From the NCBI GenBank assembly GCA_964436045.1, contig CAYTBN010000027.1:1409-65408 (forward strand): 64,000 nt of DNA. The letters are read 5' to 3'. The notes under the pieces were generated by a model, which was not told the origin of the DNA, searched no databases, and saw only the letters and a program-made list of their open reading frames with translations. Below, one piece after another: positions 45,621 through 64,000 of this stretch (position 1 is its first letter; each line of letters opens with the position of its first letter). The DNA comes from an uncultured Rickettsiales bacterium. Lineage in GTDB: Bacteria; Myxococcota_A; UBA796; UBA9615; CAYRNR01. The position numbers and the translations under genes are program-made.

Positions 45621-46001
45621 TCAGAGGCTCGGGCCGGTGGGATCCTCGTCTTCCAGATCCTGGAAGGATGGCTGCTCGGGCAGCTCGAGATCCTCGCAGG
45701 TCGGCGCCGCGGCCACCGAGAGGTTGGCGGTGATACACCAATCGTAGAGCGCGTTGCGATCCTCGGTCCGGGCCACGACGAGGGCGCGCTCGAAGCGGTC
45801 CAGGCACTTGGAGTGGTACTCCTCCGCCGAATCCGCGCCCACGCTCTGCCACGTGAGGTCCTCGGTACCGCTGTCGTCGGGCGGCACCACACACCCATTG
45901 TAGAAGTCAGTGATGCTGTCGCAGTAGGTCTGGCACGGCGTGTTGCAGCCGGCGAGCACCAGTCCGGCCAGCGCCGGGATCCACCACCATCGTATGTTCA
46001 T
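45621..46001 (-). CDS. Hypothetical lipoprotein (last gene of Tad-like locus operon)
   Basis: Start MNIRWWWIPALAGLVLAGC. Cys-rich. Its start overlaps the cpaF2 stop (ATGA). Confidence 0.5.
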   Translation of the reverse strand: MNIRWWWIPALAGLVLAGCNTPCQTYCDSITDFYNGCVVPPDDSGTEDLTWQSVGADSAEEYHSKCLDRFERALVVARTEDRNALYDWCITANLSVAAAPTCEDLELPEQPSFQDLEDEDPTGPSL

Positions 46002-47134
46002 TTTTTCAGATCCTCCTTGCGCCGGGCCGCCTCGGCCATGTCGGCCATGGCCTTGGGGAGCGCGATCCCTTGAAGCCGGATGTCCTCGGCGAACGCGGGT
46101 ACCCCGCGACATTCGAGACGGCCGATGGGGCCATCCTTGCCCCGGGCCACCACGCGGTACCGGTAGATATCTGTCACCTGATACGAGTTGTCCTTGGTAA
46201 GCGTCAGCACCTCGGAGACGTGGGTCACCTTGCGGGTCCCGTCGGGGAAGCGCTGGATCTGAACCAGCAGGTCGATGGACGACGAGATCTGGGACCGCAG
46301 CGCATGGAGCGGCAGTTGCACATCGCTCATCATGCACAGGGTCTCGATTCGGGCCAGGGCATCGTGGGGGTTGTTGGCGTGGGTGGTGCTCATCGAGCCC
46401 CGGTGACCCGATGTCATCGCCTGGACCAGGTCCAGCGCCTCGGGACCGCGCACCTCGCCGATCACGATCCGATCGGGCCGCATCCGCAGGCTCGTGCGCA
46501 GCAGATCGCGCATGGAGACCTCGCCCCTGCCGTCCCGGTCCGGCGGCCGCGTCTCCAGCGTGATCACGTGGGGCTGCTGCAGCTGGAGCTCGCTGCTGTC
46601 CTCGAGCACGAGGATCCGCTGGTCGAGGGGGATGCGCGTCGACAGCACGTTGAGCAGCGAGGTCTTCCCCGAGCCGGTCCCACCGGTGACCAGCAGGTTG
46701 CGGGAGCTCGCGACGCAGACGCCGAGGAACTCCGCCGTCTCCTCCGACAAGGTCTGCAGCTGGACCAGCTTTTCGATGTTCATCACCTCGCGCTGGAACT
46801 TGCGGATCGCCAGGTAGATGCCTTGCCGGGCAACCGGCGGCATGATCACGGTCACCCGGGCACCGTCGGGCAGGCGGGCGTCGAGCAAGGGCTGCTCGGC
46901 ACTGATGCTCTTGCCCACGAACTGGGCGATGTTGCGCACCGCGGAATCCAGCGCGGCCTCGTCGGGGAACCGCAGCTGGGTCTGGTGCAGTCGCCCCGCC
47001 CGCTCGACGTACACCTCGCTGGCGCCGTTCACCAGGATGTCGGAGACCTTGGGATCCGCCAGCGCCTGGGACACCGGTTGGAGGTGGTCCCGCAGGGTCT
47101 GCGCGAAGATCTCGTTCAGGGATACCTGCGCCAC
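45998..47134 (-). CDS. CpaF/TadA-family secretion ATPase (paralog 2, no FHA domain)
   Basis: Walker A is GGTGSGKTSLLNVL. T2SSE motifs are IVIGEVRGPEALD and MTSGHRGSMSTTHAN. GTG start at 47134 is supported by GGGGAG 7 nt upstream; the track ATG at 47191 would overlap the upstream gene by 56 nt. Confidence 0.8.
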   Translation of the reverse strand: MAQVSLNEIFAQTLRDHLQPVSQALADPKVSDILVNGASEVYVERAGRLHQTQLRFPDEAALDSAVRNIAQFVGKSISAEQPLLDARLPDGARVTVIMPPVARQGIYLAIRKFQREVMNIEKLVQLQTLSEETAEFLGVCVASSRNLLVTGGTGSGKTSLLNVLSTRIPLDQRILVLEDSSELQLQQPHVITLETRPPDRDGRGEVSMRDLLRTSLRMRPDRIVIGEVRGPEALDLVQAMTSGHRGSMSTTHANNPHDALARIETLCMMSDVQLPLHALRSQISSSIDLLVQIQRFPDGTRKVTHVSEVLTLTKDNSYQVTDIYRYRVVARGKDGPIGRLECRGVPAFAEDIRLQGIALPKAMADMAEAARRKEDLKK

Positions 47135-47135
47135 G

Positions 47136-49601
47136 TCACAGCTCCCCCAGGCGTGAGGCCGCCTTGTCGTAGTACGTGAACCCGTCGCCACGGGGGGCGA
47201 TCGCCATCACCTGCTCGTACGACTCGCGCGCGGACTCGACGCCCCCGCCGCGTTCGGTCTGGTACCCCTCCAGGTAGATACCCTTGGCGATCTCCTCGAG
47301 CTCCTTGCGTCCGGCCGAGATGCCCTTGTGGCTCGACCACGCCTTGCGCCCCGAGCTCCATTCGAAGTTGGCCTTGGCGTACTTGCCGTTGTCGAAGGCC
47401 TCCCGACCACGCCGGTAGCGGCACTCGGCCAAGCCCTGTCGGATCTCGTCCCGCCGGTTGTTGCTGCCTTCCATCCGCGTGACGTTCTTGTACGAGGACT
47501 CGAAGCGGTCCAACGCCGCGTCCAGCTCACCGCGGTCCATCGCCTTGTTGCCGGCGGCGAAGGCCCGCTCGACGCGGTCGAGGCGGCCGAGCACGTCCTG
47601 CAGCTCGAGCTTCTGCCCGGGATCGGAGGCCGTGTCGATGGCCCGCTCGAGGGTGGATCGCGCCTGCTCGACATCGCCCGCCGTATAGGCCGATATTGCC
47701 TGTTCGGCGACCTTCTCGGCCGAGCTCGAGGAGCGGCGTTCGTCCCGCGACGAGCGATCGCGGTCACGGTCCCGATCGCGGTCACGGTCACGGCCCGCCT
47801 CCTGCGCGGGGGTACTGTCCTCGGTCGCCACCGTTTCGGGGATGCCAGCGGTGTCCAGCTCCCGCCCCAGGTTCTCCTTGTACTGCTCGATCAGCTTCTT
47901 GCGCTTCCGCGGCTTGGCCTCGGCGATGGACCTCAGCTCATCGGGCCCGCTGACCGCGGGGTCGTAGGCCTCCGCCCCGTCCAGCGAAGCGAGGGCGTCG
48001 TCGATGTTGTCGTTCTCGAGGGCCACCACCGCCTCGTCCACCATCCGGCGGGCCACCAGCGGGATCATCGGCTCCACCAGCGACTTGGCCTGGATGAAGT
48101 AGCAGGAGGTGGCCGGAATACTCTTGTAGGCCTCGTAGGCACGGCCGAAGTCCAGATGCACGCTGGACTGGCTGTACAGCTTGACGAACTCCTGGACGTC
48201 CCCCAGCCGGGACAGGTTGTCCCGCTCCTGGGCGATGTTCTGGAGGTAGGCCTGGGCCTCGGTGTAGCGGGGATCGATATCGATCAACTGAACCAGGTAG
48301 CCCTCGGCGGTGTCCCAGTCCTGCTCGTCGTACGAGGCCGCCCCCGCCAGGTACATCGGCTCCATGTCGCGGCGGGTGTTGCCCGCACCGAAGTTGAACA
48401 TGTAGCCGGCGGCCTGGAACAACAGCGCGAGCACGATCACGACGCCGACAGATCCCAGGATCGCCAGCTGCCAGGTGCGGAACTGGAGCCCCCCCACCGC
48501 CACGAGCCCCTTCTTCGCGGGCTTGGCTGCGGTCTGGGCAACCGGCGCGGCCTGACGCGGAGGCGCCGTCTGGGGCCCCAGGGTCGCGCCGGCCTGGACG
48601 CTCGGTGGCAACGCGCTCACTTCGCGCATGGTCGCCGCGGTGCGACCGCTGCGAGAGGGCGGGCCGGGTGTCAGTGCCTGGGTCGGATGGCCGGACGGCG
48701 GCAGCGGCGCCGCCGCACTCATCTGGGCTGCGAGGGACGCTGGCGCAGCCTCGCCTGGCCGCCGGAAGAGCATCAGCACGCCGCCGATCTGCAGGCGCGT
48801 CCCGTTGATCAGCTCCGCCTGGGCGACGTCCTGGCTGTCCACCCGGATTCCGTTGGTGGACCCGGTGTCCTTGACCACGTACCGTCCGCCGTCCAGGTCG
48901 ACCCTGGCGTGCTGGCGGGACACGAACGGGTCGTCCAGTACCAGGTTGTTGCGGCTGCCGGCGCCGATGGTCACACCCCGACTCCCGACCGTGATCATGT
49001 GCCCCTTGCCGTCGCCGTCGACGATCTCGAGATAGGCGTGACCCTCGCGCGCGGTCATTCCACTCTCGGTCGCCCGCACGACGTCGGCCGGCGAGGCCCC
49101 CCCCGGCGCCCGTCCGGCGAGGGGGTCGGTCATGGGCATCGAGCGGGCGAACTGGCCCGGCGGAGTGGCGGGGGGCTGTGCCGGTGCCGCCTCCACGGGA
49201 TCCAGCAGGTCGGAGACATCCGCGTCCGCCGGCGAAGGGGCGCCCGGATCGAAGGCCTCGGGGACCGGCGAGCTGCCCTTGGGCCGCAGGTAGCCCGGCA
49301 GCCCCTCGTCGCCCTCGGCGAACACCAGTTCGTAGGGGCCTACCCGGATCCGGTCGCCGGTGGAGATGGCCACCTCGCCGTCGACCCGGATCCCGTTGAT
49401 CAGGGTGCCGTTGGACGAGTTGAGGTCCTTTGCGGCAAACCCGCCATCCTGCTTGATGATCTGACAATGGAACTTGCTGACCTGGCGGTCGCCGAGCACG
49501 AGGTGGTTGCGACTGTCCCGGCCGACGGCGAACTCGTCCCGGTCGACCGGGCGGGAGAAGCTCCGCCCGTCGGCCGTACTGACGGTGATCTGCGCCGTCA
49601 T
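47136..49601 (-). CDS. Double-FHA-domain membrane protein with C-terminal TPR-like domain
   Basis: Two FHA cores are present: FAVGRDSRNHLVL...SSNGTLINGIRV and ITVGSRGVTIGAGSRNNLVL...STNGIRV. A Pro/Ala-rich linker follows. One TM helix is present (LAILGSVGVVIVLALLF). A (DR)5 low-complexity tract and helical TPR-like repeats follow. Confidence 0.75.
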   Translation of the reverse strand: MTAQITVSTADGRSFSRPVDRDEFAVGRDSRNHLVLGDRQVSKFHCQIIKQDGGFAAKDLNSSNGTLINGIRVDGEVAISTGDRIRVGPYELVFAEGDEGLPGYLRPKGSSPVPEAFDPGAPSPADADVSDLLDPVEAAPAQPPATPPGQFARSMPMTDPLAGRAPGGASPADVVRATESGMTAREGHAYLEIVDGDGKGHMITVGSRGVTIGAGSRNNLVLDDPFVSRQHARVDLDGGRYVVKDTGSTNGIRVDSQDVAQAELINGTRLQIGGVLMLFRRPGEAAPASLAAQMSAAAPLPPSGHPTQALTPGPPSRSGRTAATMREVSALPPSVQAGATLGPQTAPPRQAAPVAQTAAKPAKKGLVAVGGLQFRTWQLAILGSVGVVIVLALLFQAAGYMFNFGAGNTRRDMEPMYLAGAASYDEQDWDTAEGYLVQLIDIDPRYTEAQAYLQNIAQERDNLSRLGDVQEFVKLYSQSSVHLDFGRAYEAYKSIPATSCYFIQAKSLVEPMIPLVARRMVDEAVVALENDNIDDALASLDGAEAYDPAVSGPDELRSIAEAKPRKRKKLIEQYKENLGRELDTAGIPETVATEDSTPAQEAGRDRDRDRDRDRDRSSRDERRSSSSAEKVAEQAISAYTAGDVEQARSTLERAIDTASDPGQKLELQDVLGRLDRVERAFAAGNKAMDRGELDAALDRFESSYKNVTRMEGSNNRRDEIRQGLAECRYRRGREAFDNGKYAKANFEWSSGRKAWSSHKGISAGRKELEEIAKGIYLEGYQTERGGGVESARESYEQVMAIAPRGDGFTYYDKAASRLGEL

Positions 49602-51019
49602 CTACGGGCGTCCTTCATCGCCTGCTCGATCTGCGCAAGCTCGCGGGCGGCGTACTGGAAGCGCTCATCGGTCTCATCGTCGATGAGCCGCATGATGAAT
49701 CCCAGCTCCTCCTGGCCCTCCCGGTAGTTCCCGGCGCGCTTGAGCTTCTGGTAGTGAAACAGCGCGTCCCGATGCTTCTGGTCGCGCAGGTCCTCGGCCT
49801 CCCGCAGCTTGGCCTCCACGTCCGCGACCAGCGAGCCGGGCTCCCCCAGCAGTTGCAGGGTGGCATTGGAGTTTCGCAGCTGCTGGATCGCCTGCGTCAG
49901 GTTCCCGTCCTGGAGGTGGTGCTCCTCGAGCTTCTTGCTGCCCACGTCCAGGTACTTCTGTGCGTCCGCCCGCAATTCGGCGTCCGACCGTCCCGCCCGG
50001 TCGCCCACGATCACCGGTGCCGACGAGCCACCCGCCTCGCCCCGGTCATAGGTCGCGGTGCCGGCGGTGCCGGCTCCCGGCACGATGGCATCCTTCCAGG
50101 CCCAGAGCGCCAGCAGCAGCATCACCAGCAACATCGCGGCGCGCACACCGTTGCTCTGCAGCGGGGACTTCTTGCTCTTCTGGCGGGCGGTGACCCCGTC
50201 GGCCATGCCGTCGGTCGCCTCCTGGATCGCCACCGACAATCGGCGCGGGTCCAGCTCGTCGAGCTCTGCTTGATCCTGGGCCGGTTTGCTGGGATCGGTC
50301 AGGATGACCGCCTGGCTGGGGCCCGGCTGCGCGACCGGCGCGGGCGCGCAGCCGGGCAGCACCCGTGTGTGCTCGTCGTCGCCGCGCCCGGGCACGCCGA
50401 GCTGGGCCGCGCCGCTGGCTGCGGCGGGCTGGGCCACCGGGCTGCCGAGGAGCTGGGGGGCCGCGGGGGCACTCTCCTTGGACCGGCCGCGCGGCAGCAC
50501 CTGGGTGTGCTGGTCGTCGGGCCGTCCGGGATCCTCCAGGTCGTCCGCCGGCTCCAGCGGTGCGTTGGGCACCAGATCCAGCGAGTCCTCGTCGTCGTCG
50601 TCGAGGCCGTCCAGGCTGATCTCGGGCATCGCCGGGCCGGGCGCCAGCGGATCGGGCGCGCTCCTCGCCCCGGCACCCCGGCTGGCGCGGTAATCCAGCG
50701 TCCGCGGCCCGGTCTGCTCCGGCCGGCTCAGATCGGGGTCGAAGCGCAGCTTGTAGTCGCAGACCGTGATCTCGTCGCCGGCCTTCAGCTCGACGTTGCT
50801 GACCTTCTCGCCATTGACGTGGGTCGGGTTGCGGCTGTGGCCCACCACCAGCACCGCCCGGGCGGCCTGGGCGTGGATCGCGCAGTGCACCCGGGAGACC
50901 GACGGGTCGTCGAAGACGATCTCGCAGCCGCGATCCCTGCCGATCCGGATCACCTGGGAGCGGAAGGTCACCAGCGGACCGGTCTCACGCTTGTCCAGGA
51001 TCTGGATCTTCACCGGCAT
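49598..51019 (-). CDS. FHA-domain membrane protein
   Basis: Start MPVKIQILDK. The FHA core is IRIGRDRGCEIVFDDPSVSRVHCAI...NPTHVNGEKV. An acidic disordered region and one TM helix (AAMLLVMLLLALWAW) follow. The C-terminus is coiled-coil-like. Confidence 0.7.
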   Translation of the reverse strand: MPVKIQILDKRETGPLVTFRSQVIRIGRDRGCEIVFDDPSVSRVHCAIHAQAARAVLVVGHSRNPTHVNGEKVSNVELKAGDEITVCDYKLRFDPDLSRPEQTGPRTLDYRASRGAGARSAPDPLAPGPAMPEISLDGLDDDDEDSLDLVPNAPLEPADDLEDPGRPDDQHTQVLPRGRSKESAPAAPQLLGSPVAQPAAASGAAQLGVPGRGDDEHTRVLPGCAPAPVAQPGPSQAVILTDPSKPAQDQAELDELDPRRLSVAIQEATDGMADGVTARQKSKKSPLQSNGVRAAMLLVMLLLALWAWKDAIVPGAGTAGTATYDRGEAGGSSAPVIVGDRAGRSDAELRADAQKYLDVGSKKLEEHHLQDGNLTQAIQQLRNSNATLQLLGEPGSLVADVEAKLREAEDLRDQKHRDALFHYQKLKRAGNYREGQEELGFIMRLIDDETDERFQYAARELAQIEQAMKDARR

Positions 51020-51036
51020 GGGTCCGCGCTGCTCGT

Positions 51037-51945
51037 TCACACCAGGTCCCCGTTCATGTAACGCACGATCAGCGGGCCGAACATGGTCAGGAACACCGCG
51101 ATCAAGATCATCAGGATCGGGAACAGGATCTTGATGGTCGCCTCGGCTGCGATCTTCTCGGCCCGCTGGGTCCGCTTCAACCGGTTGGCCTGGGCCTGCA
51201 CCTGGAGGATCCGGGACAGCGGCGTCCCCATCGCCTCGGCCTGCACCACCGCGCCGACCACGGAGGTGACGTACTCGGACTGGATTCGATCCGACATGTT
51301 CAGCAGGGCCTCGCGCCGGGTCACACCGAGCCGGATCTCCTGCAGCACGTAGTGCAGCTCCTCGATCAGCGGGCCCTTCTGGCTCTCCTTGCTGACCACC
51401 GAGTCCAGGGCGGTGTTGAAGTCCAGCCCGGCCCCCAGGCTCAAGCTCAGCAGGTCGAGCACGAAGGGCAGGTGGCGGTTGACCGCCGACAGCCGGCGAA
51501 TGATCAGATCCTCCATGTAGAGGAAGGGCAGGTAGGCGCTGATCATCCCCGGGATCATCGCCAGCAATGGGCTGGCGCCGCCGAGCCCCACCGCGGTGAA
51601 GGCGATGCCGAACAGCATGCCGCTGATCCCGGCACACACGCAGGTGGCCAGGAACTCGTCGGGGGTGAATCCGCCCGGGTGACCGGCGCGGGCCAGCTTG
51701 ACCTTGAGTCCCGCTCGGACCTTGTCCAGATCCAGCGTCCCGATCCAGTAGGTGGGGATGAAGATCAGGATCCGGAGCATCACGTAGGCCTGGTTGCTGT
51801 CGGCCAGCTGCTGGCGCTTGAAAGCAACGAACCCCTTCTCGGGCGCCTCGCCGTCCCAGTCCTCGTCGGGGGCCATCGCCCGCACGGCCGCGTAGACCGC
51901 CAGGAACAGGACCGCGGATGCGAACAGGCCGTAGATGTACAGCAT
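51037..51945 (-). CDS. TadC/GspF-like inner-membrane platform protein
   Basis: T2SSF-domain features (LGAGLDFNTALDSV...QAEAMGTPLSRIL) and three TM segments. Confidence 0.8.
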   Translation of the reverse strand: MLYIYGLFASAVLFLAVYAAVRAMAPDEDWDGEAPEKGFVAFKRQQLADSNQAYVMLRILIFIPTYWIGTLDLDKVRAGLKVKLARAGHPGGFTPDEFLATCVCAGISGMLFGIAFTAVGLGGASPLLAMIPGMISAYLPFLYMEDLIIRRLSAVNRHLPFVLDLLSLSLGAGLDFNTALDSVVSKESQKGPLIEELHYVLQEIRLGVTRREALLNMSDRIQSEYVTSVVGAVVQAEAMGTPLSRILQVQAQANRLKRTQRAEKIAAEATIKILFPILMILIAVFLTMFGPLIVRYMNGDLV

Positions 51946-52805
51946 CAGATGTCCGCCGCCAGGATCCGCCGGATGAGGAACACGCCGACGGCCTCGAAGG
52001 CCAGGATCAGGAAGATGATCACGTAGCCCTTTGGATCGGTGAACAGCTCGGAGATGTACTCGGGATCGATCAGATAGACGGCGAAGGCGAAGGCGGCCGG
52101 CATGCCACCGATGACCCAGCCCTGGAGCTTACCCTGGGCGGTCATGGTCTTGATCTTCTCCTCCAGGCGGAAGATCTCGCGGATCGCCGACGAGGTGTCC
52201 TCGAACACCTGGGGCACGTTGCCGCCGTGGACCCGGGTGATCAGGATCCCGGTCATCACCATGTCGAAGAACCGGCTGCGCAGCCGGTTGCCCATCTTGA
52301 CCAGCGCCTCCTCCAGGGTCAGCCCCAGCTTGTGCTCCTTGAGCATCAGCCGGAACTCCTGGTTGATGGGCGGCTCCATGGAGTCGGAGACCACGTCCAT
52401 TGCCTGGGTCAGCACCAGGCCGGCGCGCATGGAGTTGGCCATCGACTGCAGGGCGTCGATCAGCTGCTGGTCGAACTTCTCCATCCGCTTCTGGCGGGCG
52501 CGTCGCAGCAGGAAGGTGGGCACGAAGTAGGCCAGCCCGGCGATCACGATGGCCCCGAACCAGCCGATGAAGTTGGCCACACCCAGGAAGACCAGGATCA
52601 TGAAGGCGATGTGGTAGACGAAGAACCGCTTGGGCGAGAACTCGATGTACAGGTCGTCCAGCTGGGAGCCGACCCAGTCCACGTAGCGCGCATAGAAGTC
52701 GTCGAGCTTCTGGGTCACCCAGCGTCCGTTGAGCGCCACCACCAGGAGCATGGTCACCAGGAAGCCCAGCACCACCAGGATCAGGAACGGGGTCGAGGTC
52801 CACAT
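51945..52805 (-). CDS. TadB/GspF-like inner-membrane platform protein
   Basis: T2SSF-domain features (MANSMRAGLVLTQAMD...) and TM segments. Its stop and start are adjacent to the flanking genes. Confidence 0.8.
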   Translation of the reverse strand: MWTSTPFLILVVLGFLVTMLLVVALNGRWVTQKLDDFYARYVDWVGSQLDDLYIEFSPKRFFVYHIAFMILVFLGVANFIGWFGAIVIAGLAYFVPTFLLRRARQKRMEKFDQQLIDALQSMANSMRAGLVLTQAMDVVSDSMEPPINQEFRLMLKEHKLGLTLEEALVKMGNRLRSRFFDMVMTGILITRVHGGNVPQVFEDTSSAIREIFRLEEKIKTMTAQGKLQGWVIGGMPAAFAFAVYLIDPEYISELFTDPKGYVIIFLILAFEAVGVFLIRRILAADI

Positions 52806-55613: not shown

Positions 55614-55620
55614 GTCAACC

Positions 55621-57535: not shown

Positions 57536-58121
57536 TGTATGCCCACATGTCCAGGTACGCCTCGTAGCCCCAGAGCACCACGTTGCCCTCGATGTCCTCG
57601 TAGTCCCAGTTCCCGATCGCGATCTTGTGCGTGCGCGTCACGTTGATGTTGCTGGCGTAGGGCAGCAGCGAGTTGCGGATCGGCTGGACCACCGTGGCCT
57701 CGTAGTGAGTGTCGACGGGCGCGATCCCGGTGGCCAGCATGGTGGCGATCTGGCTGTAGTTGATCAGCCCGGTCGGGTTGGTGAGGCCGCCCGGATCGGG
57801 GAATTGCAGAAAGATCGACGGGTCGAAGTCGCTGAGGTTCTCCAGGGTGTCGTTGGAGGCACTGCCGGAGATCGACGCCCCGGCCAGCTTGAAGTCGTTC
57901 TGTGCCTTGGCGGACGCCGCCGACAGGCTGTGGTTCGGGTCGTGGCGCCCGGCCTTCCAGGCCACGTAGCGTACGGCGATCTGGGCGTTCTGCTCCTGAT
58001 AGTAGGCCTTGCCGAAGTGGATGATCCCCATGATCAGGACCAGGAAGATCGGCAGGGTCACGGCGAACTCGACCGTGGCCTGCCCGCGGACGTCTTCGCG
58101 CAGTCGGCGGATGGCTCTCAT
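57501..58121 (-). CDS. TadE-like pseudopilin
   Basis: N-terminus MRAIRRLREDVRGQATVEFAVTLPIFLVLIMGII is the TadE signature. Confidence 0.75.
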   Translation of the reverse strand: MRAIRRLREDVRGQATVEFAVTLPIFLVLIMGIIHFGKAYYQEQNAQIAVRYVAWKAGRHDPNHSLSAASAKAQNDFKLAGASISGSASNDTLENLSDFDPSIFLQFPDPGGLTNPTGLINYSQIATMLATGIAPVDTHYEATVVQPIRNSLLPYASNINVTRTHKIAIGNWDYEDIEGNVVLWGYEAYLDMWAYNEIYGLCDWCF

Positions 58122-59455
58122 CAGTGGGTGATCACGATCTGGGTAAGGTCACTGAGGCCCGCGACCCACAACGATATCCGACCCGCCGCGCCGATGTCCG
58201 GGGGCATCGGCAGCCCCGGCGTCGTCAGCATGTAGTCGGTCATGAACAGGGGCATGTCTCCCAGCTTGGACACGGGCACCAAGTGGGCGTGCCAGCGGGG
58301 GACGAACATGTTGCCGTCTTGGGTGTTGGTGACCTCGGCCTGGGCCACCGTGATCATCCCGAACACCTCGTTGTACGGGTTGTTGAAGTGGTCGGGCAGG
58401 GCGATGACCTCGCCCTGCTCGGGCGAATCGTAGCCGATGGCGACGTACTGGGCGGAGTCCGGGAACTCGTCGTCCAGGATCAGCGGATTGGCCTTGCCGG
58501 TGTCCGTGTAGTCCGACAGGCTCGGGTACCACCACAGCCCCTGGCACTCGACCAGGTAGTACCAGGCCACGTTGGTCTCCCACCACGTGTTGCCCTTGGC
58601 CAGGGGCGCCATCTTGCCGAACAGCATCTGGTAGGGCAGCTGCTGGGTCGGGCTGCCCAGCGGACCGTTGGCCCAGTGGGGATAGGCCGCCAACGCCGGG
58701 GCGTACGCGTCCTCGGGATAGGCCGTGATGGCGTAGTACAACATCGCAGACACGGCGGCGGTCTTGATGCCGGCGTCCTCCCACAGGTCGTAGCCGCCGT
58801 CGTCGCCGTTGGCCATCGTCTCGCACAGATCGGTCATCTCCCCCTCTTTGAGGGGCATCTCGTTGGGCCACACGAAGGCGTAGTCCAGCCCGTTCTCCTG
58901 GGCCAGCATCGTGCCCTCGGTCATCGCCATCGCCTCGAAGCCGTCGCGTACCCCCTCGGCGACGGTCGTCAGATCGTCCATCCGTGTGAAGAGGAACTCG
59001 ATCTGATCGTCCAGCGGTGGCCAGCCGGCCATCAGCAGCTGGATCCCGACCATCGCGCAGTTCCACTCCTCGATGATCGACTGCCAGCAGCGGCCGAAGT
59101 CGAGGTCGCACCAGGGATCGCAGAAGCACGAGGCGTTGGCTGCGGCCATGTCGGCCGACTCCAGCACCGCCCAGGTGATGGACTCGGTGAAGATCGCCTC
59201 GGCGAGCAACATCGACTTCATGATGTTGGTCATCGCGATCAGGTTCATGCCGCGGGCTTCCCAGGTGGCCGCGCTGATGGCGGCCGAGTCGACCGCGTTC
59301 TGCGCCGTCACCTTGTGGGTCAGGTGGCGGCCATTGTTCAGCATCAGGATCACGAACGAACAGATCAGGAACCCGGTCAGGGCCACGAAGGCCATGGTCT
59401 GGCCGTCGCGCCTGTGGTGGAGCGACATCGCCCGGCGAACCAGCGTGCGCATCAC
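58121..59455 (-). CDS. TadG-like (Tad_N) pilus-associated protein
   Basis: N-terminus RRDGQTMAFVALTGFLICSFVILML is the TadG/Tad_N-type hydrophobic start. Large Cys/Trp-rich periplasmic domain. Confidence 0.65.
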   Translation of the reverse strand: MMRTLVRRAMSLHHRRDGQTMAFVALTGFLICSFVILMLNNGRHLTHKVTAQNAVDSAAISAATWEARGMNLIAMTNIMKSMLLAEAIFTESITWAVLESADMAAANASCFCDPWCDLDFGRCWQSIIEEWNCAMVGIQLLMAGWPPLDDQIEFLFTRMDDLTTVAEGVRDGFEAMAMTEGTMLAQENGLDYAFVWPNEMPLKEGEMTDLCETMANGDDGGYDLWEDAGIKTAAVSAMLYYAITAYPEDAYAPALAAYPHWANGPLGSPTQQLPYQMLFGKMAPLAKGNTWWETNVAWYYLVECQGLWWYPSLSDYTDTGKANPLILDDEFPDSAQYVAIGYDSPEQGEVIALPDHFNNPYNEVFGMITVAQAEVTNTQDGNMFVPRWHAHLVPVSKLGDMPLFMTDYMLTTPGLPMPPDIGAAGRISLWVAGLSDLTQIVITH

Positions 59456-60423
59456 GGGGTCTCCAGGGTCAGGGTGCAGGTGGCGTTGATCGCCGTGTAG
59501 CTACCCGGCGCGAACTCCAGCAACGAGAACTCCGAGGGCAGGGTGCCCATCTCGTCGATCAGCTGGGCCGCCAGCGGGATGTTGAGGTGGAAGCAGTGGG
59601 TGACCTGCACGGTGATGTCGTCGTGGGGATTGAAGGTGACCACGTCGCCCGGGGCGGCCACCACCGAGGTGCCGCCTCCGCTGACGGTGACGAACTTCAC
59701 CACGGTGCAGAAGTACGAGTAGGCGAACCGATCCGCATAGTCGAGCACCTGGACCGCGCCCGGGATCACCGACAACATGCTGGTGATGGCGTTGACCACG
59801 TCCATCACCAGCCCTCCCACCAGGGGCAGCCCGGCCAGCACGTGGCTGGCGCGCCGGGAGATCGGCACGCAGGCGATGACCGCGGAGTTCTTGATGTTGG
59901 AGTACTTCTCGTTGCCGGTCGACAGGGTGATCTTGTTGACCTCCTCGTCGGCCTCCATCGGGATCCAGACGATGGCGGAGCGGGCGGCGGCGTAGGCGGC
60001 GTACAGCGTCACGTTCTTGGCGTTGTACATCAGCGACATCTGGGCCACGCCCATCACGACCATCATCAGCGCCCAGAAGATGATCACGAACTCGGTGATC
60101 GCCTGACCGGCCTGGGCCCGTCGCAGCTTGACCAGCCCGCGGAAGGGCGACATCGGGCTGGAGACCAGCAGCGACATCCGCCACACCAGCAGGACCAGCG
60201 ATCCCACGGCCAGGGAGATCCCGATCGCGAGGCCGGTCGGGGCGCCGGTGAACGAGACGTTGGCGATCACCCCCGGTGCCACCGGCCCCGACCCGGAGAG
60301 CAGGCGCGCAGGCGAGGGTGCGAACAGCTGGATGCTCGCGAAGCAGGCGGCGGACACCCCCACGAAGGTCAGCAGGATCCGGAGGACTGTGGTCAAGCGG
60401 TTCGGCATTTTTCCCGCAACCAT
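59452..60423 (-). CDS. TadE-like protein with unusual N-terminal two-TM extension
   Basis: The TadE motif RRAQAGQAITEFVIIFWALMMVVMGV is internal, about 120 aa into the ORF. The preceding in-frame region has strong GC3 coding bias and two TM helices. Start uncertain (candidates 60474, 60423, 60408, 60177, 60153). Confidence 0.55.
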   Translation of the reverse strand: MVAGKMPNRLTTVLRILLTFVGVSAACFASIQLFAPSPARLLSGSGPVAPGVIANVSFTGAPTGLAIGISLAVGSLVLLVWRMSLLVSSPMSPFRGLVKLRRAQAGQAITEFVIIFWALMMVVMGVAQMSLMYNAKNVTLYAAYAAARSAIVWIPMEADEEVNKITLSTGNEKYSNIKNSAVIACVPISRRASHVLAGLPLVGGLVMDVVNAITSMLSVIPGAVQVLDYADRFAYSYFCTVVKFVTVSGGGTSVVAAPGDVVTFNPHDDITVQVTHCFHLNIPLAAQLIDEMGTLPSEFSLLEFAPGSYTAINATCTLTLETP

Positions 60424-60520
60424 CTTATCGGGGCCCTGGCGCTGCCGGGACGGTTTTTTGCAAACTCCTCGCATCCGCGCTGCCCGCGCACGGGGTTGCG
60501 CACGGAGGCGCACACGTTTC

Positions 60521-60540
60521 TTTAATATTTACAGTAACTT
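60521..60540 (-). promoter_or_regulatory. AT-rich island (TTTAATATTTACAGTAACTT) in about 190-nt intergenic gap; candidate promoter for the pseudopilin/secretin operon
   Basis: This is the only strongly AT-rich 20-mer in a >68% GC context. It lies upstream (minus-strand sense) of the 59452..60423 gene. Confidence 0.35.
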
Positions 60541-60616
60541 GGGAGGGGCTGGCCCATAGTGAACTACATACAGAACACCCCTGGGGCCGGCACTGTACGG
60601 GGGCAGATGGCGGGTT

Positions 60617-62155
60617 TCAGCGTTTCCGGGGTGCAACCGAGACCCGGCAGTCGCCCGCAGGCGGCGGGATCCCGGAATCGCGCCGCAGGTAGAGCAACCG
60701 GCCGTAGAGCGGGGTCCGCCCGTAGTCCGGGATCAGGGCGCGGTGCAGCCGGTAATCGCGGCCGAGCCGAGGACCGCCGTGAACCCGGCGTTCGACGCTG
60801 GCGCGCAGATCCTCCGCAGCCACCGTCCCCTCGCAGCCCGGGTCCAGCGGCGGCTCGCGCTCGAGGCGCAGCACGATGGCGTCCGGCGCCCGCTCGTCGA
60901 ACAGATAGTCGAGGTCGAAGCGCTTGGCCAGCCGCCCACCGGGGGCGCGGCCGATGACCGGGTCGGTCAGCCCCCCCAGGTCCGTGATCTCCAGGGTGCC
61001 CCGGAAGCCGATCTCGCCGATGTCGATCAGGGCCACGCTGTCGGCGCCTGCTTCGGCCAGCCACTCCTCGATCCGCCGATCCTCGTGGCGGATCGTGCGG
61101 AGGCTGGCGTCCGCCAGTCCGACCACGCGGCTGGCCTCGAGCGCCCCACCGCCGATACAGAGCATGATCAGGGGTAGCACGATGAGCCGCGGTCTCCGGG
61201 ACCCGGTCAGCAGCGCGGACGATCCCGCAGCAGCGACCGCCAGGGCAGCGTAGCAGGGCAACAGGAAGCGGCCGGCGGGCATCCAGTCGCCGCCCTCGAG
61301 GACCGCCGCGAGGGCCCAGGCCAGGGCCACCGCCAACCACGCCCGGGGCCATTTGCCTCCCACGGCGGCGCCGATCACCGCCAGCGCCAGCAACGGCAGC
61401 GCCCAGGGATCGAGCAGACCATCGAGGAGGTAACGCAGGCCCTCGAGCCGATCTGGCGGCTTGGCAAAGTAGGTATTGGGCAGCCACTCCTCGAACACCG
61501 CGCGGCGGACCACCAGCAGTGCGAGCGCGCTGCCCGCGGCCGCGGTGGCCAGGATCGCCCCCCGCCGGATCACGTCACGCTCCCGGACCACGGTGAGCGC
61601 CGCCGCGAGGGCCACGGGGATCCACATTCCCTCGGGGCGGCACAGGGGCCCGCCCATCGCGGCGGCGGCACCCAGCCAGAGGGGCACGCGGCCCGTCAGC
61701 CCTGCCACCGCCACCAGCGTCAGCGCCACGAACGCCAGGGTCTCCAGCCCGGTCGCGGTGTGGTAGGCCACCGGGCCGCTGATCGCCAGCAACAGACAGG
61801 CGATCCAGGGCGCTGGCCTCCGGGTCTGGTCGGTCACCGCCGCCAGCGCTGCCATCGAGAGCAGCAGGGCCAGACAACCCGCCACGGACGCCGCCCGGGG
61901 GATCGCCTCGACGCCGAAGAACGCGCCAGCGGCCAGATCCAGCGCGAGCCACAGGGGGCTCGAGAACCCCTCGGCGGGCGCGGCCGCCGGCTCGAATGTG
62001 GGTCCATGCCCCGCCAGTACGTTGGCGGCGTAGCGGTGGGTGATGAAGGCGTCATCCAGCTGAAACGGGAGCACCGCCAGTGCCAGCCCGAGACCGCCGA
62101 GCCCGGCCACGAGGGCCGCCAGCATCGCCGTCCGTGTCCCGCGACCGCTGACCAT
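60617..62155 (-). CDS. Multi-pass membrane glycosyltransferase, GT-C fold (PMT_2/ArnT-like)
   Basis: At least 10 predicted TM helices. The first-loop motif FQLDDAFITHRYAANVL resembles the DE/DD-x-x-RYA catalytic loop of GT39/GT83 (PMT/ArnT). A soluble C-terminal domain follows. Start at MVSGRG (62155). Confidence 0.55.
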   Translation of the reverse strand: MVSGRGTRTAMLAALVAGLGGLGLALAVLPFQLDDAFITHRYAANVLAGHGPTFEPAAAPAEGFSSPLWLALDLAAGAFFGVEAIPRAASVAGCLALLLSMAALAAVTDQTRRPAPWIACLLLAISGPVAYHTATGLETLAFVALTLVAVAGLTGRVPLWLGAAAAMGGPLCRPEGMWIPVALAAALTVVRERDVIRRGAILATAAAGSALALLVVRRAVFEEWLPNTYFAKPPDRLEGLRYLLDGLLDPWALPLLALAVIGAAVGGKWPRAWLAVALAWALAAVLEGGDWMPAGRFLLPCYAALAVAAAGSSALLTGSRRPRLIVLPLIMLCIGGGALEASRVVGLADASLRTIRHEDRRIEEWLAEAGADSVALIDIGEIGFRGTLEITDLGGLTDPVIGRAPGGRLAKRFDLDYLFDERAPDAIVLRLEREPPLDPGCEGTVAAEDLRASVERRVHGGPRLGRDYRLHRALIPDYGRTPLYGRLLYLRRDSGIPPPAGDCRVSVAPRKR

Positions 62156-62190
62156 GGCCTCCGCCCGCACCTGCCGCCCAGTGGGGGTTG

Positions 62191-62730
62191 TCAGAACAGG
62201 TCCATGTGTCGCAGCAGGTCCAGGTTCTCCAGGCTGGCCCAGATCGTCCCCACCGCGATCGCCACCCCGAAGGGAACCCGCTGGCTGTTGGCCGGATCCA
62301 GCTTCTGGGTCTGCATCGGCATCGCCCAGGTGACCACGGTCCACAGGGTGTTGCGGATCCCCCGCCACAGCACACCCTTCCACAGCATCACCGACACCGC
62401 GAGCACTCCCCCGACCAGGATCGTGTGGAAGAGTCCGCCCACGATCGCGGGATACCCCACGATCGCCCCCGCAGCTCCCATCAGCTTGACGTCGCCGCCC
62501 CCCATGCCGCCGAACAGGAACACCAGGAAGAAGGGCACGAAGCCCACCGCGAGCCCCAGGCCGTGCTGGCCCAGCTCGGGCAAGCCGCCGGCCACCACGG
62601 CCAGGACGAGCCCCAGCGCCACCGCGGGGTAGGTGATCTGGTTGAAGATCTTGCCGGTCGCCAGGTCGCTCAACGCGCACAGCACCATCACGCCGTACAA
62701 GAGCACCTTTTCGGCGACCTCATAGGGCAT
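62191..62730 (-). CDS. Prepilin peptidase CpaA/TadV (A24 family)
   Basis: 179 aa polytopic protein. Asp-containing motifs (LSDLATGKI...GGGDVKLMGAAGA) are typical of TadV/CpaA. Confidence 0.8.
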   Translation of the reverse strand: MPYEVAEKVLLYGVMVLCALSDLATGKIFNQITYPAVALGLVLAVVAGGLPELGQHGLGLAVGFVPFFLVFLFGGMGGGDVKLMGAAGAIVGYPAIVGGLFHTILVGGVLAVSVMLWKGVLWRGIRNTLWTVVTWAMPMQTQKLDPANSQRVPFGVAIAVGTIWASLENLDLLRHMDLF

Positions 62731-62859
62731 CGGTCGGGCCCGCGCAGCCTATGGTGAAACGAGTAGAGAACAAGAGGACGACTCCGAGAAAACGTGCGCT
62801 GGATCCCCAATGGCCTGTGCTATGGTTCCGCTGCACGGAATAGCGGGAAGGTACCACAG

Positions 62860-63054
62860 GTGCATCCGAGCAGCGACGCAACCGAGCGCCGCCCAGTGAG
62901 GCGACGCGACGAGTCGGGTCAGGCGATGACGGAGTACATCCTCGTCGTCGCGATCGCGGTCGTCGGACTGATCCTGGTCAGCAACGCGCTGACCCGCTCG
63001 GTCCTCGCGTACTTCACGATGCAAGCCCTGTGGATCTCTCTGCCCATCATGTGA
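62860..63054 (+). CDS. Flp-family pilin 1
   Basis: The leader ends ...DESG|QAMTEY, with Glu at +5 and Tyr at +6 of the mature peptide and a hydrophobic stretch ILVVAIAVVGLILV. GGGAAGG RBS precedes the GTG start. Confidence 0.75.
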   Translation: MHPSSDATERRPVRRRDESGQAMTEYILVVAIAVVGLILVSNALTRSVLAYFTMQALWISLPIM

Positions 63055-63076
63055 ACAACGTATGGGAGGTCGATCG

Positions 63077-63262
63077 ATGAACGCGCTGGCCAGGCTCCAC
63101 CGGGACGAGACCGGACAGGGGATGACCGAGTACATCCTGATCGTGGTCTTCATCGCGATCGCGGTACTGATCGTGCTGGGCATCTTCAAGGAGCAGATCA
63201 AGCGACTGTTCCGCGGCACCAACACGGAGCTGCAGAACGTCAACGTCGCGCCGACCTCCTAG
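63077..63262 (+). CDS. Flp-family pilin 2
   Basis: Leader MNALARLHRDETG|QGMTEYILIVVFIAIAVLIVLGIF. GGGAGG RBS 7 nt upstream of ATG. Confidence 0.75.
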   Translation: MNALARLHRDETGQGMTEYILIVVFIAIAVLIVLGIFKEQIKRLFRGTNTELQNVNVAPTS

Positions 63263-63437
63263 TCGGTCCGATCCTCACGCCCGCGCCGATCGCCGGGGTT
63301 TGCCCTGGCGGTCCGCGCGTACCCTAGCGCTGTTGCCCCCGCCCGTTCGGGGGTGAACTGCGACCATTCCGTCAGATTCTTGTCGGTTCCCTGCCGGATC
63401 CCGCGTGGGCTTGCGCTACAATCAATCGGACCTATCT

Positions 63438-63460
63438 CGATGCACAAGGATGCATCGATG
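63438..63460. promoter_or_regulatory. Palindrome TCGATGCA-N6-TGCATCGA upstream of Ser/Thr kinase gene
   Basis: Perfect 8-bp inverted arms, preceded by a TACAAT -10-like hexamer (~63416). Candidate operator. Confidence 0.35.
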
Positions 63461-63702
63461 CCGTACCGTGCGCCGCGCCAGCCGACTGGAGTCCCTTGAA
63501 TCCAGGCCAGCCCAACCACGATCCGCCCGCCGACGGCCGCCTGCCCCAGGCGACACCGGTCGATGACAACCTGTCGACGACGGATGGCGAGCTGGCCGAA
63601 GAGCTGGAGCCCGATCTGGAGCCGGTGGAGCCCGTGCTGCAGGCCACTCCGGTGGACGGCATCCCGGTGGTACCCGGCGGTGGCCCGCCCGACGACGGCG
63701 AG

Positions 63703-64000
63703 ATGATCCCGGCGGCGGTGGTCGAGGGAGTCGCCCGCCAGCATCCGGGGGCGAACACCATCTCCGATGCGGTCTTCCAGTCCGACGAGTTCCTGGCCAA
63801 ACGTTACGACATGATCCGCCGTGTCGGCCGCGGGGGCATGTCGGTGGTCTACCTGGCCCACGATCGCCAGCTCCACCGGAACGTGGCGGTCAAGGTGACG
63901 CGCCCGTTCGGCGCCGAGGAGCTCGACGTCCAGACCGCGCGTTTTGTCAACGAGGCGCGAATCCTCGCCCGGCTGAACCACCCCAACATCGTCCAGGTCT
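63703..64000 (+). CDS. Hanks-type Ser/Thr protein kinase (partial; continues past window end)
   Basis: YDMIRRVGRGGMSVVYLAHDRQLHRNVAVKV contains the Gly-rich loop and the VAVK Lys. The frame is open from 63328. The start is uncertain (ATG 63703; in-frame TTG 63496 / GTG 63625 upstream). Confidence 0.6.
   Translation, partial: MIPAAVVEGVARQHPGANTISDAVFQSDEFLAKRYDMIRRVGRGGMSVVYLAHDRQLHRNVAVKVTRPFGAEELDVQTARFVNEARILARLNHPNIVQV

Follow-up and report, generated by a model that had tools for sequence, protein, structure and literature searches.

A putative Kil-type Tad-like pilus locus with FHA-domain proteins and a Ser/Thr kinase gene in an uncultured, Myxococcota-like bacterium

The 64-kb stretch of DNA analyzed here (denoted the window) holds the whole of a Kil-like apparatus in a single contiguous locus. 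We consider it probable that this locus encodes an unsplit, Kil-type Tad-like (type IVc) pilus whose assembly would be gated by phosphorylation through a kinase and FHA domains; the phospho-control we infer from the domains and motifs of the predicted proteins. The best genome match is a 'Myxococcota bacterium' MAG (L004, the closest genome), and on the basis of this match we place the uncultured bacterium as Myxococcota-like.

Layout of the locus and its Tad components

To assign functions, the approximately 55 ORFs of the entire 64-kb window were scanned with Pfam, applying curated cut-offs. The features are as follows.

62191..62730, minus strand: prepilin peptidase, TadV/CpaA/KilA-like, 179 aa, operon gene 1 (Pfam Peptidase_A24, E 6e-18)
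60617..62155, minus strand: polytopic membrane protein, 512 aa, at least 7 TM segments by TM prediction
59452..60513, minus strand: TadE-like minor pilin, 353 aa (323 aa by gene callers; Pfam TadE, E 7e-9, aa 136-178)
58121..59455, minus strand: TadG-like minor pilin, 444 aa (Pfam Tad, PF13400, 24.6 bits; cut-off 22.3)
57501..58121, minus strand: TadE minor pilin, 206 aa, third of the trio (Pfam TadE, E 7e-13)
56504..57535, minus strand: conserved protein, 343 aa, N-terminal TM/signal anchor, MXAN_4653/4654 position
55621..56439, minus strand: CpaB/RcpC, KilB-like (Pfam RcpC, E 2e-26; SAF, E 4e-8)
54444..55613, minus strand: short Tad-type secretin, 389 aa (Pfam Secretin, E 4e-29)
52805..54406, minus strand: FHA-fused CpaF/TadA motor, 533 aa, KilF-like (Pfam T2SSE, E 5e-60; FHA, E 3e-16)
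51945..52805, minus strand: TadB, KilG-like platform protein, single-domain (Pfam T2SSF, E 1.5e-16)
51037..51945, minus strand: TadC, KilH-like platform protein, single-domain (Pfam T2SSF, E 5e-17)
49598..51019, minus strand: FHA-TM protein, 473 aa, MXAN_4649 position (Pfam FHA, E 1e-16; Yop-YscD_cpl, E 1e-12)
47136..49601, minus strand: 2×FHA - TM - helical/TPR-like protein, 821 aa, KilD / MXAN_4648-like (Pfam FHA, E 1e-33)
45998..47134 (or 47191), minus strand: CpaF2, FHA-less second CpaF-family ATPase, 378 aa (Pfam T2SSE, E 5e-58)
45621..46001, minus strand: Cys-rich lipoprotein, 126 aa (lipobox LAGC read from the translation)
62896..63054, plus strand: Flp pilin 1, start uncertain, mature part from QAMTEY (G/QAMTEY)
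63062..63262, plus strand: Flp pilin 2, 66 aa (G/QGMTEY)
63496..64000, plus strand: 5' part of a Hanks Ser/Thr kinase gene that runs off the window (alternative start 63703)

Sixteen genes, mostly overlapping or closely spaced, form a minus-strand operon of ~17.5 kb (62730→45180). The two pilin genes and the kinase gene make up a flp1-flp2-kinase unit on the plus strand, divergent from the Tad/Flp operon, which corrects the earlier note on this DNA. That note had proposed a near-complete Tad apparatus with two CpaF ATPases, one of them fused to an FHA domain, and both proposals were borne out, each listed part being found in its place. The core set (CpaF/TadA, two T2SSF proteins, secretin, RcpC/CpaB, peptidase and minor pilins) scored above the Pfam gathering scores throughout. 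Both pilins fell below the Flp_Fap cut-off of 32.2 bits (flp1, 16.3 bits; flp2, 25.9 bits, E 8e-6) and carry the prepilin motif G/Q[AG]MTEY. As the same note had claimed, TadZ/CpaE (ParA/MinD-like) and TadD are missing: neither was found among the ~55 ORFs of the window or in the flank beyond the kinase. The two are accessory, not core, Tad components. A PP2C was likewise absent from the ~55 ORFs, and the window showed neither T3SS* nor toxin genes.

The minor pilins form a TadE-TadG-TadE trio. The first of them, which is conserved in L004 and L088-L096, has a long N-terminal extension ahead of its prepilin motif (G/QAITEF), and the TadG-like member is 46% identical in L004. The peptidase is 34% identical to the KilA-position gene of Citreicoccus. 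The secretin comprises a pil_N-like domain, one BON-like domain and the secretin core; its best PDB sequence matches are 8jvb and RcpA 8odn. The flp genes are paired also in L088 and L091-L093, and flp2 is 65% identical in L004. A GC-rich hairpin without a U-tract lies 3' of flp2 (63282-63319) and may split pilin from kinase transcription; a scan of the flp-kinase region for promoter and terminator consensus sequences gave no match.

Three operon genes had been overlooked previously: those of the 512-aa membrane protein, the 343-aa protein and the 126-aa lipoprotein. The 512-aa protein yielded zero matches in Pfam, NCBIfam and PDB sequence searches, and a GT-C/pilin-glycosyltransferase identity would be speculation. 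Its slot is variable: L091 has a counterpart that is 57% identical, and in L088, L092 and L093 the slot is occupied by a pseudokinase-like protein of ~690 aa. The 343-aa protein, also with zero matches in Pfam, NCBIfam and PDB, is found at the same position in L004 (34% identical), L088-L096 and L025. The lipoprotein gene, whose start overlaps the CpaF2 stop by 4 nt, probably belongs to the operon; its product matched no family in Pfam, NCBIfam or PDB, and a homologue was not detected in the related loci.

FHA-domain proteins and two motor ATPases

Pfam FHA matches were obtained in all three places where such domains had been suspected, i.e. the 2×FHA protein, the FHA-TM protein and the N terminus of the motor ATPase. 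The genes of the first two, previously described as upstream of tadC, are in fact transcriptionally downstream of it. The 473-aa FHA-TM protein is composed, in this order, of an FHA domain, a disordered linker, a TM segment and a periplasmic helical domain, and its orthologues are present in L004, L088, L089, L090, L095, L096 and L048. The linker bears two DD[QE]HT[QR]VLP motifs. Thr-x-hydrophobic motifs are a recurrent feature of this region, being present in the linker of six of six FHA-TM orthologues examined. By their sequence, the repeated acidic Thr motifs are candidate phospho-sites. The 821-aa protein contains two FHA stretches and one strong TM segment (aa 379-397), and shares 26% identity with Archangium KilD in an alignment that covers both FHA domains. 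The FHA and TM parts of the double-FHA/TM/TPR architecture assigned to it earlier hold; its TPR matches all fell below the Pfam cut-offs, and the 'TPR' part is best described as helical-repeat-like.

Residues of the pThr pocket (GR, S-x-x-H, N-G/P) are present in three of the four FHA domains: that of the motor (GR / SRxH / NG intact), that of the FHA-TM protein and the first of the two in the 2×FHA protein, whose second FHA lacks the pocket arginine. This pattern bears on an explanation that we consider unlikely, namely that the FHA domains are structural YscD/PrgH-like scaffolds without phospho-dependence, or are served by remote kinases, the adjacent kinase controlling something else such as pilin expression. 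It would fit the Yop-YscD_cpl matches, which are nearly as strong as the FHA ones and point to the cytoplasmic-domain family of YscD/PrgH in T3SS, whose FHA fold is structural, the PrgH-like annotation of MXAN_4649 and the one domain devoid of the pocket arginine. However, structural FHA folds such as that of YscD typically lose the full pThr-binding signature, which is kept here in three of four domains, and the conserved Thr motifs of the linkers likewise argue against a purely structural role.

The FHA-fused motor belongs to the type named 'class III CpaF' (PMC12019362). More than 8000 homologues of this motor were found, and FHA-fused proteins make up most of the matches listed. In a neighbor-joining (NJ) tree of the ATPase cores only, the window ATPase clusters with those of other Myxococcota (Polyangia-type) loci; KilF of the Myxococcaceae sits in a group with FHA-CpaFs of gammaproteobacteria. 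Monophyly of the window motor with Myxococcaceae KilF was not recovered in this tree, and strict orthology to KilF is therefore unproven. CpaF2 retains Walker A/B and the His box, as read from the translation. In the same tree it falls into a separate, deep paralogous clade whose members are each time paired with a main CpaF. This clade co-occurs with the main motor in at least nine loci, and homologues of ~380 aa number in the hundreds; around KilF no member was found.

The kinase beside the pilin genes and a proposed mechanism

The distance of about 440 nt between pilins and kinase given in the earlier note holds for a start at 63703 (ATG, 440 nt after flp2); the start at 63496, chosen by gene callers in identical contigs, lies 233 nt after flp2. 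The full-length protein, taken from the identical contig L084, has 585 aa (Pfam Pkinase, E 2e-49) and consists of a kinase domain, a TM segment, an acidic linker and an Ig-like ectodomain. The K, HRD, N, DFG and APE elements are invariant in 14 orthologues, and we predict from the sequence a catalytically intact, membrane receptor-type Hanks kinase. The full-length model was poor (mean pLDDT 58); modelled separately, the ectodomain reached a pLDDT of 90 with an Ig-like fold, for which the fold search returned a generic Ig-like sandwich only, with no clue to a ligand. Members of the orthogroup score between 476 and 1285 bits and generic kinases follow at 271 bits, which marks the orthogroup as narrow; no orthologue was detected outside its small clade. 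A kinase-like gene of L004 was rejected as an orthologue. It is 27% identical, its catalytic motifs are degenerate (HGQLRPAN, no DFG), its C-terminus differs and it lies on the other side of DUF192.

Synteny in related genomes, which the earlier note had named as a check, supports the association. In five of five loci examined (the window, L088, L091, L092 and L093), the kinase gene directly follows flp-flp and is divergent from the FHA-CpaF operon. The gene on its other flank differs among the five, and the arrangement is kept while the kinase diverges to ~50% identity. These loci are close relatives, their FHA-CpaFs being ~80% identical or more, and the synteny may partly reflect inertia. 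The sister-clade loci L089, L090, L095 and L096 have the same core operon and show no kinase within 10 kb, and the same is true of the 10 kb around KilF in kil cluster 1 of Archangium and Citreicoccus, which makes the kinase an accessory specific to its lineage. Other lineages show comparable neighborhoods: non-orthologous Hanks kinases adjoin the FHA-CpaF Tad loci of L005 and L008, and in L048 the same FHA / 2×FHA / CpaF2 module has both a kinase and a PP2C inside the gene row. Of 25 FHA-fused loci, 4 have a kinase within 10 kb, compared with 1 of 55 non-fused ones (Fisher p = 0.03, phylogeny ignored).

These data bear on two of the alternatives. That FHA proteins occur without a kinase within 10 kb, in the four sister-clade loci and in kil cluster 1 of Archangium and Citreicoccus, is what structural scaffolds would predict; the kinase and PP2C inside the L048 operon and a kinase orthogroup found only beside flp in the five loci examined speak against them. 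Alternatively, the adjacency might be a chance event in a kinase-rich genome, without a functional tie to the pilus genes. Myxococcota genomes are indeed rich in Hanks Ser/Thr kinases, kinase-free relatives exist, and the kinase-like gene of L004 is non-orthologous and differently placed. Nevertheless, the persistence of flp-flp-kinase at ~50% kinase identity next to a rearranged flank, the independent kinase and PP2C associations in distant lineages and the kinase enrichment near FHA-fused loci, counted as above, make chance very improbable.

In the preferred, phospho-gated reading, an envelope or contact cue would activate the kinase via its Ig-like ectodomain, the catalytic domain being cytoplasmic. 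The kinase would then phosphorylate threonines, candidates being those of DDxHT[Q/R]VLP in the FHA-TM protein's cytoplasmic linker, those in the kinase's own loops, or both. The pocket-intact FHA domains of the motor, the FHA-TM protein and the 2×FHA protein (its first) could dock on these pThr sites, and in this way the CpaF hexamer might be recruited or licensed at the TadB/TadC platform. As a result, assembly of the Flp filament through the secretin, with the three minor pilins as its cap, would take place only where and when signalled. FHA-less CpaF2 could serve as a paralogous second motor, for retraction or for phosphorylation-independent action. If the analogy with Kil extends to function, the machine may serve to attack other cells upon contact. 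The parallel with T6SS PpkA-Fha control that the earlier note had drawn is reasonable and receives comparative support from the related loci; control of this kind is something we infer.

A broader version of the proposal strikes us as unlikely. It holds that the window represents a distinct and widespread class of phospho-gated, two-motor Tad machines, in which pThr marks set by a receptor kinase (with or without a PP2C) on the repeated acidic Thr motifs of the FHA-TM protein, acting as a YscD-like scaffold, recruit the FHA-CpaF as extension motor, and the deep-branching CpaF2 is a dedicated retraction or alternative motor. The class would range over Polyangia-type Myxococcota, a large marine sister clade and a PVC-like MAG. 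If true, the two-motor reading would overturn the 'single bifunctional ATPase' rule for Tad pili; conservation of CpaF2 already questions a single bifunctional motor for all Tad-like machines.

What triggers Kil assembly upon prey contact has been a standing question since 2021, and the literature searched, including the 2021 paper and the 2025 review, names no kinase for the Kil FHA cascade. The kinase beside the pilins is a candidate trigger of Kil-like machines. The pilin-fixed kinase orthogroup, the L048 kinase and PP2C, the Thr motifs and the motor FHA pocket all provide handles on the cascade proposal, and the broader version, if true, would name the kind of kinase and the phospho-sites to seek for the Myxococcus Kil trigger. 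The kinase orthogroup after the flp genes, the non-orthologous kinases at FHA-CpaF loci and the CpaF2 clade go beyond the literature searched. Their value is tempered by an uncultured organism, a kinase detected only in a small clade and a concept that is already published.

Comparison with Kil and other systems

The Kil-like reading of the earlier note is upheld by gene order and by sequence. The kil genes form two clusters, MXAN_3102-3108 and MXAN_4648-4661 (Seef et al. 2021, Herrou et al. 2025). In cluster 2 the order is MXAN_4648 (FHA+TPR), MXAN_4649 (FHA/PrgH-like), KilH, KilG, KilB, pilins and TadG-like (Seef 2021). The window reads 2×FHA, FHA-TM, TadC, TadB, ATPase with secretin, CpaB, unknown and minor pilins. 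As judged from the predicted proteins, this order mirrors M. xanthus kil cluster 2 with KilF and KilC of cluster 1 inserted, and the peptidase, the secretin, the FHA-ATPase and the 2×FHA KilD match Myxococcaceae/Archangium cluster 1. Shared features are the FHA-fused CpaF, the 2×FHA KilD-like protein, the FHA/PrgH-like membrane protein beside TadC/TadB, CpaB, a TadV-type peptidase, Flp pilin(s), three minor pilins including a TadG-like one, a short pil_N/BON/secretin protein without N0, and the lack of TadZ and TadD.

The FHA-ATPase, multiple FHA proteins, a short secretin and a missing TadD are published Kil hallmarks, and a T6SS-like FHA/phosphorylation cascade was proposed for Kil already in 2021 (PMC8460266). 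Accordingly, the departures from canonical Tad loci listed in the earlier note are present, but their novelty was overestimated, since most are such hallmarks; this includes the secretin, indeed only 389 aa long. The absence of TadZ, which is not given as a hallmark, fits the Kil gene table, where TadZ has no entry (Seef 2021 Suppl. file 1). The known analogue of a set of three minor pilins is the Kil Tip, which comprises three of them (PMC12075869, Herrou et al. 2025), and Tip1-4 are reportedly nearly restricted to Myxococcales (Herrou et al. 2025).

What goes beyond published Kil is confined to two features, the second ATPase and the in-locus kinase. Descriptions of Kil give one ATPase, whereas the window adds an intact FHA-less CpaF2, and a receptor Ser/Thr kinase follows its pilins, whereas a kinase is not among the genes listed for the kil clusters. 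Further differences concern organization and sequence. Kil is split over two clusters and the window is one contiguous locus; the secretin is 26% identical to Archangium KilC, has 389 instead of 479 aa and one BON-like repeat fewer; KilD is described as cytoplasmic, whereas the 2×FHA protein has a predicted TM segment; the window motor lacks the disordered linker between FHA and ATPase of the Kil motor, and in the NJ tree Myxococcaceae KilF is not its sister. Kil assembles at prey contact and is required for contact-dependent killing. The uncultured organism of the window is known from metagenome contigs alone. The locus might instead encode an ordinary adhesive or surface-sensing Tad pilus with a regulatory motor FHA (class III-like) and not a predation or killing device. 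We regard this as the foremost of the alternatives, albeit clearly less probable than a Kil-type machine. FHA-CpaF is widespread in lineages that are not predatory, among them Acidithiobacillus, Burkholderiales, Chromatiales and Lentisphaerae, the grouping of KilF with gammaproteobacterial FHA-CpaFs agrees with it, and so does the window without T3SS* or toxin genes. On the other hand, the extra FHA-TM and KilD-like proteins, the lack of TadZ/TadD, the short secretin and the gene order are those of Kil, and the closest genome is a Myxococcota MAG.

With canonical Tad/Cpa systems (Aggregatibacter tad, Caulobacter cpa), the Kil-type locus of the window shares the G/XXXXEY Flp prepilin, an A24 peptidase without methylase domain, CpaF/TadA, the TadB/TadC pair, an RcpA/CpaC-type secretin, RcpC/CpaB and TadE/F/G. 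It differs from them by lacking TadZ/CpaE, TadD and RcpB, by the motor FHA and the two extra FHA membrane proteins, and by two motor paralogues in place of one bifunctional ATPase. Like the PpkA/PppA/Fha1 pathway of the P. aeruginosa T6SS, it has a membrane Hanks kinase with an extracytoplasmic domain encoded beside the machine and FHA scaffold(s). In that pathway, however, the machine is a T6SS and not a Tad pilus, and the ectodomain of PpkA is vWA, not Ig-like; in the window an FHA is also fused to the motor, and a PP2C is found not there but in the related locus L048. Class III CpaFs of beta- and gammaproteobacteria (PMC12019362) share the N-terminal FHA, and gammaproteobacterial L008 is, like the window, flanked by a Hanks kinase. 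Class III loci are otherwise more canonical, L008 having a TadD-like TPR protein and lacking FHA-TM, 2×FHA and CpaF2. The predator-associated Tad of Bdellovibrio bacteriovorus, with TadZA plus TadA2/TadA3 (bioRxiv 10.64898/2026.07.08.737194), resembles the window in possessing more than one TadA paralogue and neighboring FHA/TPR regulatory genes. Its TadA paralogues are dispersed and rcpA2-tadA2 is dispensable, whereas in the window CpaF2 occupies the penultimate conserved position of the same operon. The main motor of Bdellovibrio is fused to TadZ, whereas that of the window is fused to FHA.

Organisation of the Tad locus

Codon-position GC and ORF analysis of the window (68% G+C) revealed one dense row of minus-strand genes running from 62730 to ∼45180, in which most junctions are 1–4 nt overlaps or gaps of <70 nt. 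The Pfam scores of all assignable genes of this row lie well over the curated cut-offs.

Genes of the operon in transcription order (window numbering; all on the minus strand)
Gene 1, −: A24 prepilin peptidase
Gene 2, 60617-62155, −: 512-aa polytopic membrane protein
Gene 3, 59452-60513, −: TadE-like minor pilin
Gene 4, −: TadG-like minor pilin
Gene 5, −: TadE minor pilin
Gene 6, −: conserved 343-aa protein without assigned role
Gene 7, −: CpaB/RcpC
Gene 8, −: secretin, 389 aa
Gene 9, 52805-54406, −: FHA-fused CpaF ATPase (FHA-CpaF)
Genes 10 and 11, −: TadB, then TadC
Gene 12, 49598-51019, −: FHA-linker-TM protein (FHA-TM)
Gene 13, 47136-49601, −: 2×FHA-TM-helical protein (2×FHA)
Gene 14, 45998-47134, −: second CpaF, no FHA (CpaF2)
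Genes 15 and 16, −: small lipoprotein, then small secreted protein

The plus strand, divergent from the peptidase, encodes a pair of Flp pilins that share the motif G|Q[AG]MTEY; a Hanks kinase gene comes next and runs off the window. An ORF-by-ORF scan of the rest of the window yielded housekeeping genes, with TadZ/CpaE, TadD and PP2C all absent. The Pfam matches and the window-wide scan therefore confirm what the earlier note had read from the sequence, namely a Tad apparatus with FHA proteins, two CpaFs and a kinase from which TadZ and TadD are absent. Its gene inventory stood, and small corrections were needed to strand and to “upstream” versus “downstream” placement.

Several further features were seen in the window. 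A GC-rich hairpin without a U-tract (63282-63319) lies 20 nt past the flp2 stop codon, and the surrounding 166 nt have a folding z of −2.5; this element between flp2 and the kinase may act as an attenuator or stabiliser of the pilin mRNA. In the first TadE-like minor pilin, ∼130 residues containing two predicted TM segments precede the prepilin motif G|QAITEF, an unusually long leader; the length of the protein is conserved among relatives (320–350 aa). A DPBB_1 gene (RlpA-like lytic transglycosylase fold; 43670-44083, +) converges on the operon end, as it also does in an 80%-identity relative (L088:18745-19122). Two large proteins encoded in succession (885 and 648 aa; 28691-33285) combine an N-terminal zinc ribbon with C-terminal TPR repeats and are followed by a small TFIIB-type zinc-ribbon protein (28331-28690). 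The far window end carries an adjacent pair of CotH-family kinase-like genes and an ABC1 atypical kinase (2-826, 1054-2781, 5802-7757), which are unrelated to Hanks kinases and have no visible connection to the Tad locus.

Relatives of the locus and its second ATPase

Among species-level genomes, a “Myxococcota bacterium” MAG (L004; ATPase 66% identical) is the closest, and this one best genome match provides the taxonomic assignment of the window. Its operon matches that of the window and likewise contains the FHA-TM gene, a 2×FHA gene and the second ATPase. Four metagenomic loci with ∼80% ATPase identity (L088 and L091-L093) have the whole layout in common with the window. In a large sister clade (L089, L090, L095, L096) the row reads DUF192, Flp, peptidase, TadE, TadG, TadE, a 338-aa gene, CpaB, secretin, FHA-CpaF, TadB, TadC, FHA-TM and CpaF2, and contains neither a 2×FHA gene nor a kinase. 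The DUF192 gene is a conserved neighbour at the flp end in both clades (L089, L090, L091, L095, L096, and 539-892 of L084, a metagenome contig identical to the window); the window's lineage has the kinase interposed between DUF192 and the pilin genes. What lies between peptidase and first minor pilin varies from locus to locus. This slot is occupied by a polytopic membrane protein of 512–541 aa without a family match in the window and L091 (7094-8719), and by a ∼690-aa cytoplasmic pseudokinase-like protein whose kinase C-lobe is degenerate (VHGDIRPANV) in L088:3198-5246, L092:6611-8764 and L093:6711-8774.

The Walker and His-box motifs of CpaF2 are intact. A neighbour-joining tree of ATPase cores places it in a separate, deep clade whose members are each paired with a main CpaF in the same locus (window, L088, L004, L089, L090 and the further comparison loci L077, L005, L060 and L048). 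Its homologues number in the hundreds, and many were judged, from contigs of identical length, to share contigs with FHA-CpaF matches. CpaF2 could serve as a retraction motor or as a phospho-independent motor. In Bdellovibrio, TadA paralogues are reported to be dispersed and the rcpA2-tadA2 module to be dispensable (bioRxiv 10.64898/2026.07.08.737194).

The pilin-linked kinase, FHA domains and threonine motifs

The full kinase (585 aa) was recovered from identical metagenome contigs. Its catalytic domain, at aa ∼95–350, has every canonical residue and is followed by a single TM helix, an acidic linker and, at the C terminus, an ectodomain that is confidently modelled as an Ig-like β-sandwich. 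A search with the full-length protein yielded 14 clusters that form a sharply delimited orthogroup (476–1285 bits), with generic kinases next at 271 bits. In all five retrieved contexts (window, L088, L091, L092 and L093) the gene directly follows flp-flp and points away from the FHA-CpaF operon; its other flank varies, with DUF192/RtcB in some loci and a cNMP-binding methyltransferase in others. A kinase-like gene of L004 was rejected as an orthologue.

Hanks kinases unrelated to this one also neighbour the FHA-CpaF Tad loci of L005 (a deltaproteobacterial MAG, two kinases) and L008 (a Chromatiales MAG). For the 80 species-representative loci, a kinase gene lay no more than 10 kb away in 4 of 25 with an FHA fusion and in 1 of 55 without (Fisher p = 0.03, with no correction for phylogeny). 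L048 (an uncultured bacterium, 54% G+C; L048:4475-20106) is the most telling of these associations. Its row opens with a kinase (1053 aa, with Sel1 repeats) and further on comprises secretin, FHA-CpaF, TadB, TadC, an FHA protein, a 2×FHA protein, PP2C, a kinase-like protein and CpaF2. Of all loci examined, none joins kinase, phosphatase and FHA genes to a Tad apparatus as completely.

The phosphothreonine-pocket residues (Arg, Ser-x-x-His, Asn) are kept in three of the four FHA domains; the pocket arginine is lost from the second FHA domain of the 2×FHA protein. The disordered cytoplasmic linker of FHA-TM, at aa 100–285, carries two near-identical acidic motifs, DDQHTQVLP (aa ∼168–176) and DDEHTRVLP (∼214–222). 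Between one and three Thr-x-V/hydrophobic-x-Pro motifs occupy the same linker place in every orthologue examined (L088, L004, L048, L089, L090), with flanking residues that vary between lineages. Such motifs are candidates for phospho-acceptor or FHA-docking sites. At aa ∼600–625, in what is predicted to be its periplasmic half, the 2×FHA protein has an (Asp-Arg)6 run ahead of an Arg/Ser-rich stretch (GRDRDRDRDRDRDRSSRDERRSSSS).

In the best-supported model, phosphorylation would gate how the FHA-CpaF motor is recruited, through the FHA membrane scaffolds, to the TadB/TadC platform; the phospho-marks would be written, in the window's lineage, by the receptor kinase that the locus encodes. The main rival, in which the FHA modules are structural in the manner of YscD/PrgH, retains some probability because most relatives encode no nearby kinase, but is weakened by the intact phosphothreonine pockets and by the kinase/PP2C pair of L048.

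Comparison with the Kil system

The Tad-like Kil machine of Myxococcus xanthus (Seef et al. 2021, PMC8460266) has as its marks an ATPase fused to FHA (KilF), over-represented FHA proteins (KilD, MXAN_3104, MXAN_4648, MXAN_4649), a secretin that is uniquely short and lacks N0, the absence of TadD, RcpB and TadG, and a single ATPase; its FHA proteins were proposed to work in a contact-triggered, T6SS-like phosphorylation cascade (PMC8460266). The order of kil cluster 2, namely FHA+TPR, FHA/PrgH-like, KilH, KilG, KilB, unknowns, pilins and a TadG-like gene (PMC8460266), is that of the window when matched through the published domain table rather than by sequence. The ATPase and secretin genes, which belong to the separate cluster 1 in Kil, are placed between TadB and CpaB in the window. 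With this common order and the inserted cluster 1 genes, the window thus resembles an unsplit form of Kil.

Direct sequence comparison with Myxococcaceae/Archangium kil cluster 1 (L011, L094) gave identities of 34% for the peptidase, 26–27% for the secretin (the window protein being without one BON-like repeat) and 58% for the ATPase core; the 2×FHA protein is 26% identical to KilD across both FHA domains, with equal spacing. In the neighbour-joining tree, built on the core of one conserved protein, the ATPase, the window was not placed beside Myxococcaceae KilF. In an alignment of FHA-CpaF homologues (P0008-P0113), the window protein and its closest relatives (532–535 aa) have no 40–100-residue disordered linker behind the FHA domain; the others, including Archangium KilF, have a Gln/Pro- or Glu-rich one of that length between FHA and the three-helix bundle.

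Taken together, the Kil marks, gene order and cluster 1 matches bear out the Kil-like reading of the earlier note: the locus is genuine, can be annotated well, and is Tad-like of the Kil type. The departures from canonical Tad that the note had stressed are present, but their novelty was overstated. FHA-fused CpaF is already recognised as “class III” CpaF, mostly betaproteobacterial (PMC12019362), and our searches returned thousands across many phyla. Since these proteins are a recognised class and the Kil marks are published, the departures amount to the known Kil signature, excepting the second ATPase and the adjacent kinase. Archangium and Citreicoccus have no CpaF2 gene in the 10 kb around KilF, which agrees with the published description of Kil as having a single ATPase, whereas the window has two. 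Relative to the searched literature, the pilin-linked receptor kinase, the kinase/PP2C pairs in distant relatives, the conserved threonine motifs and the paired second motor are new.
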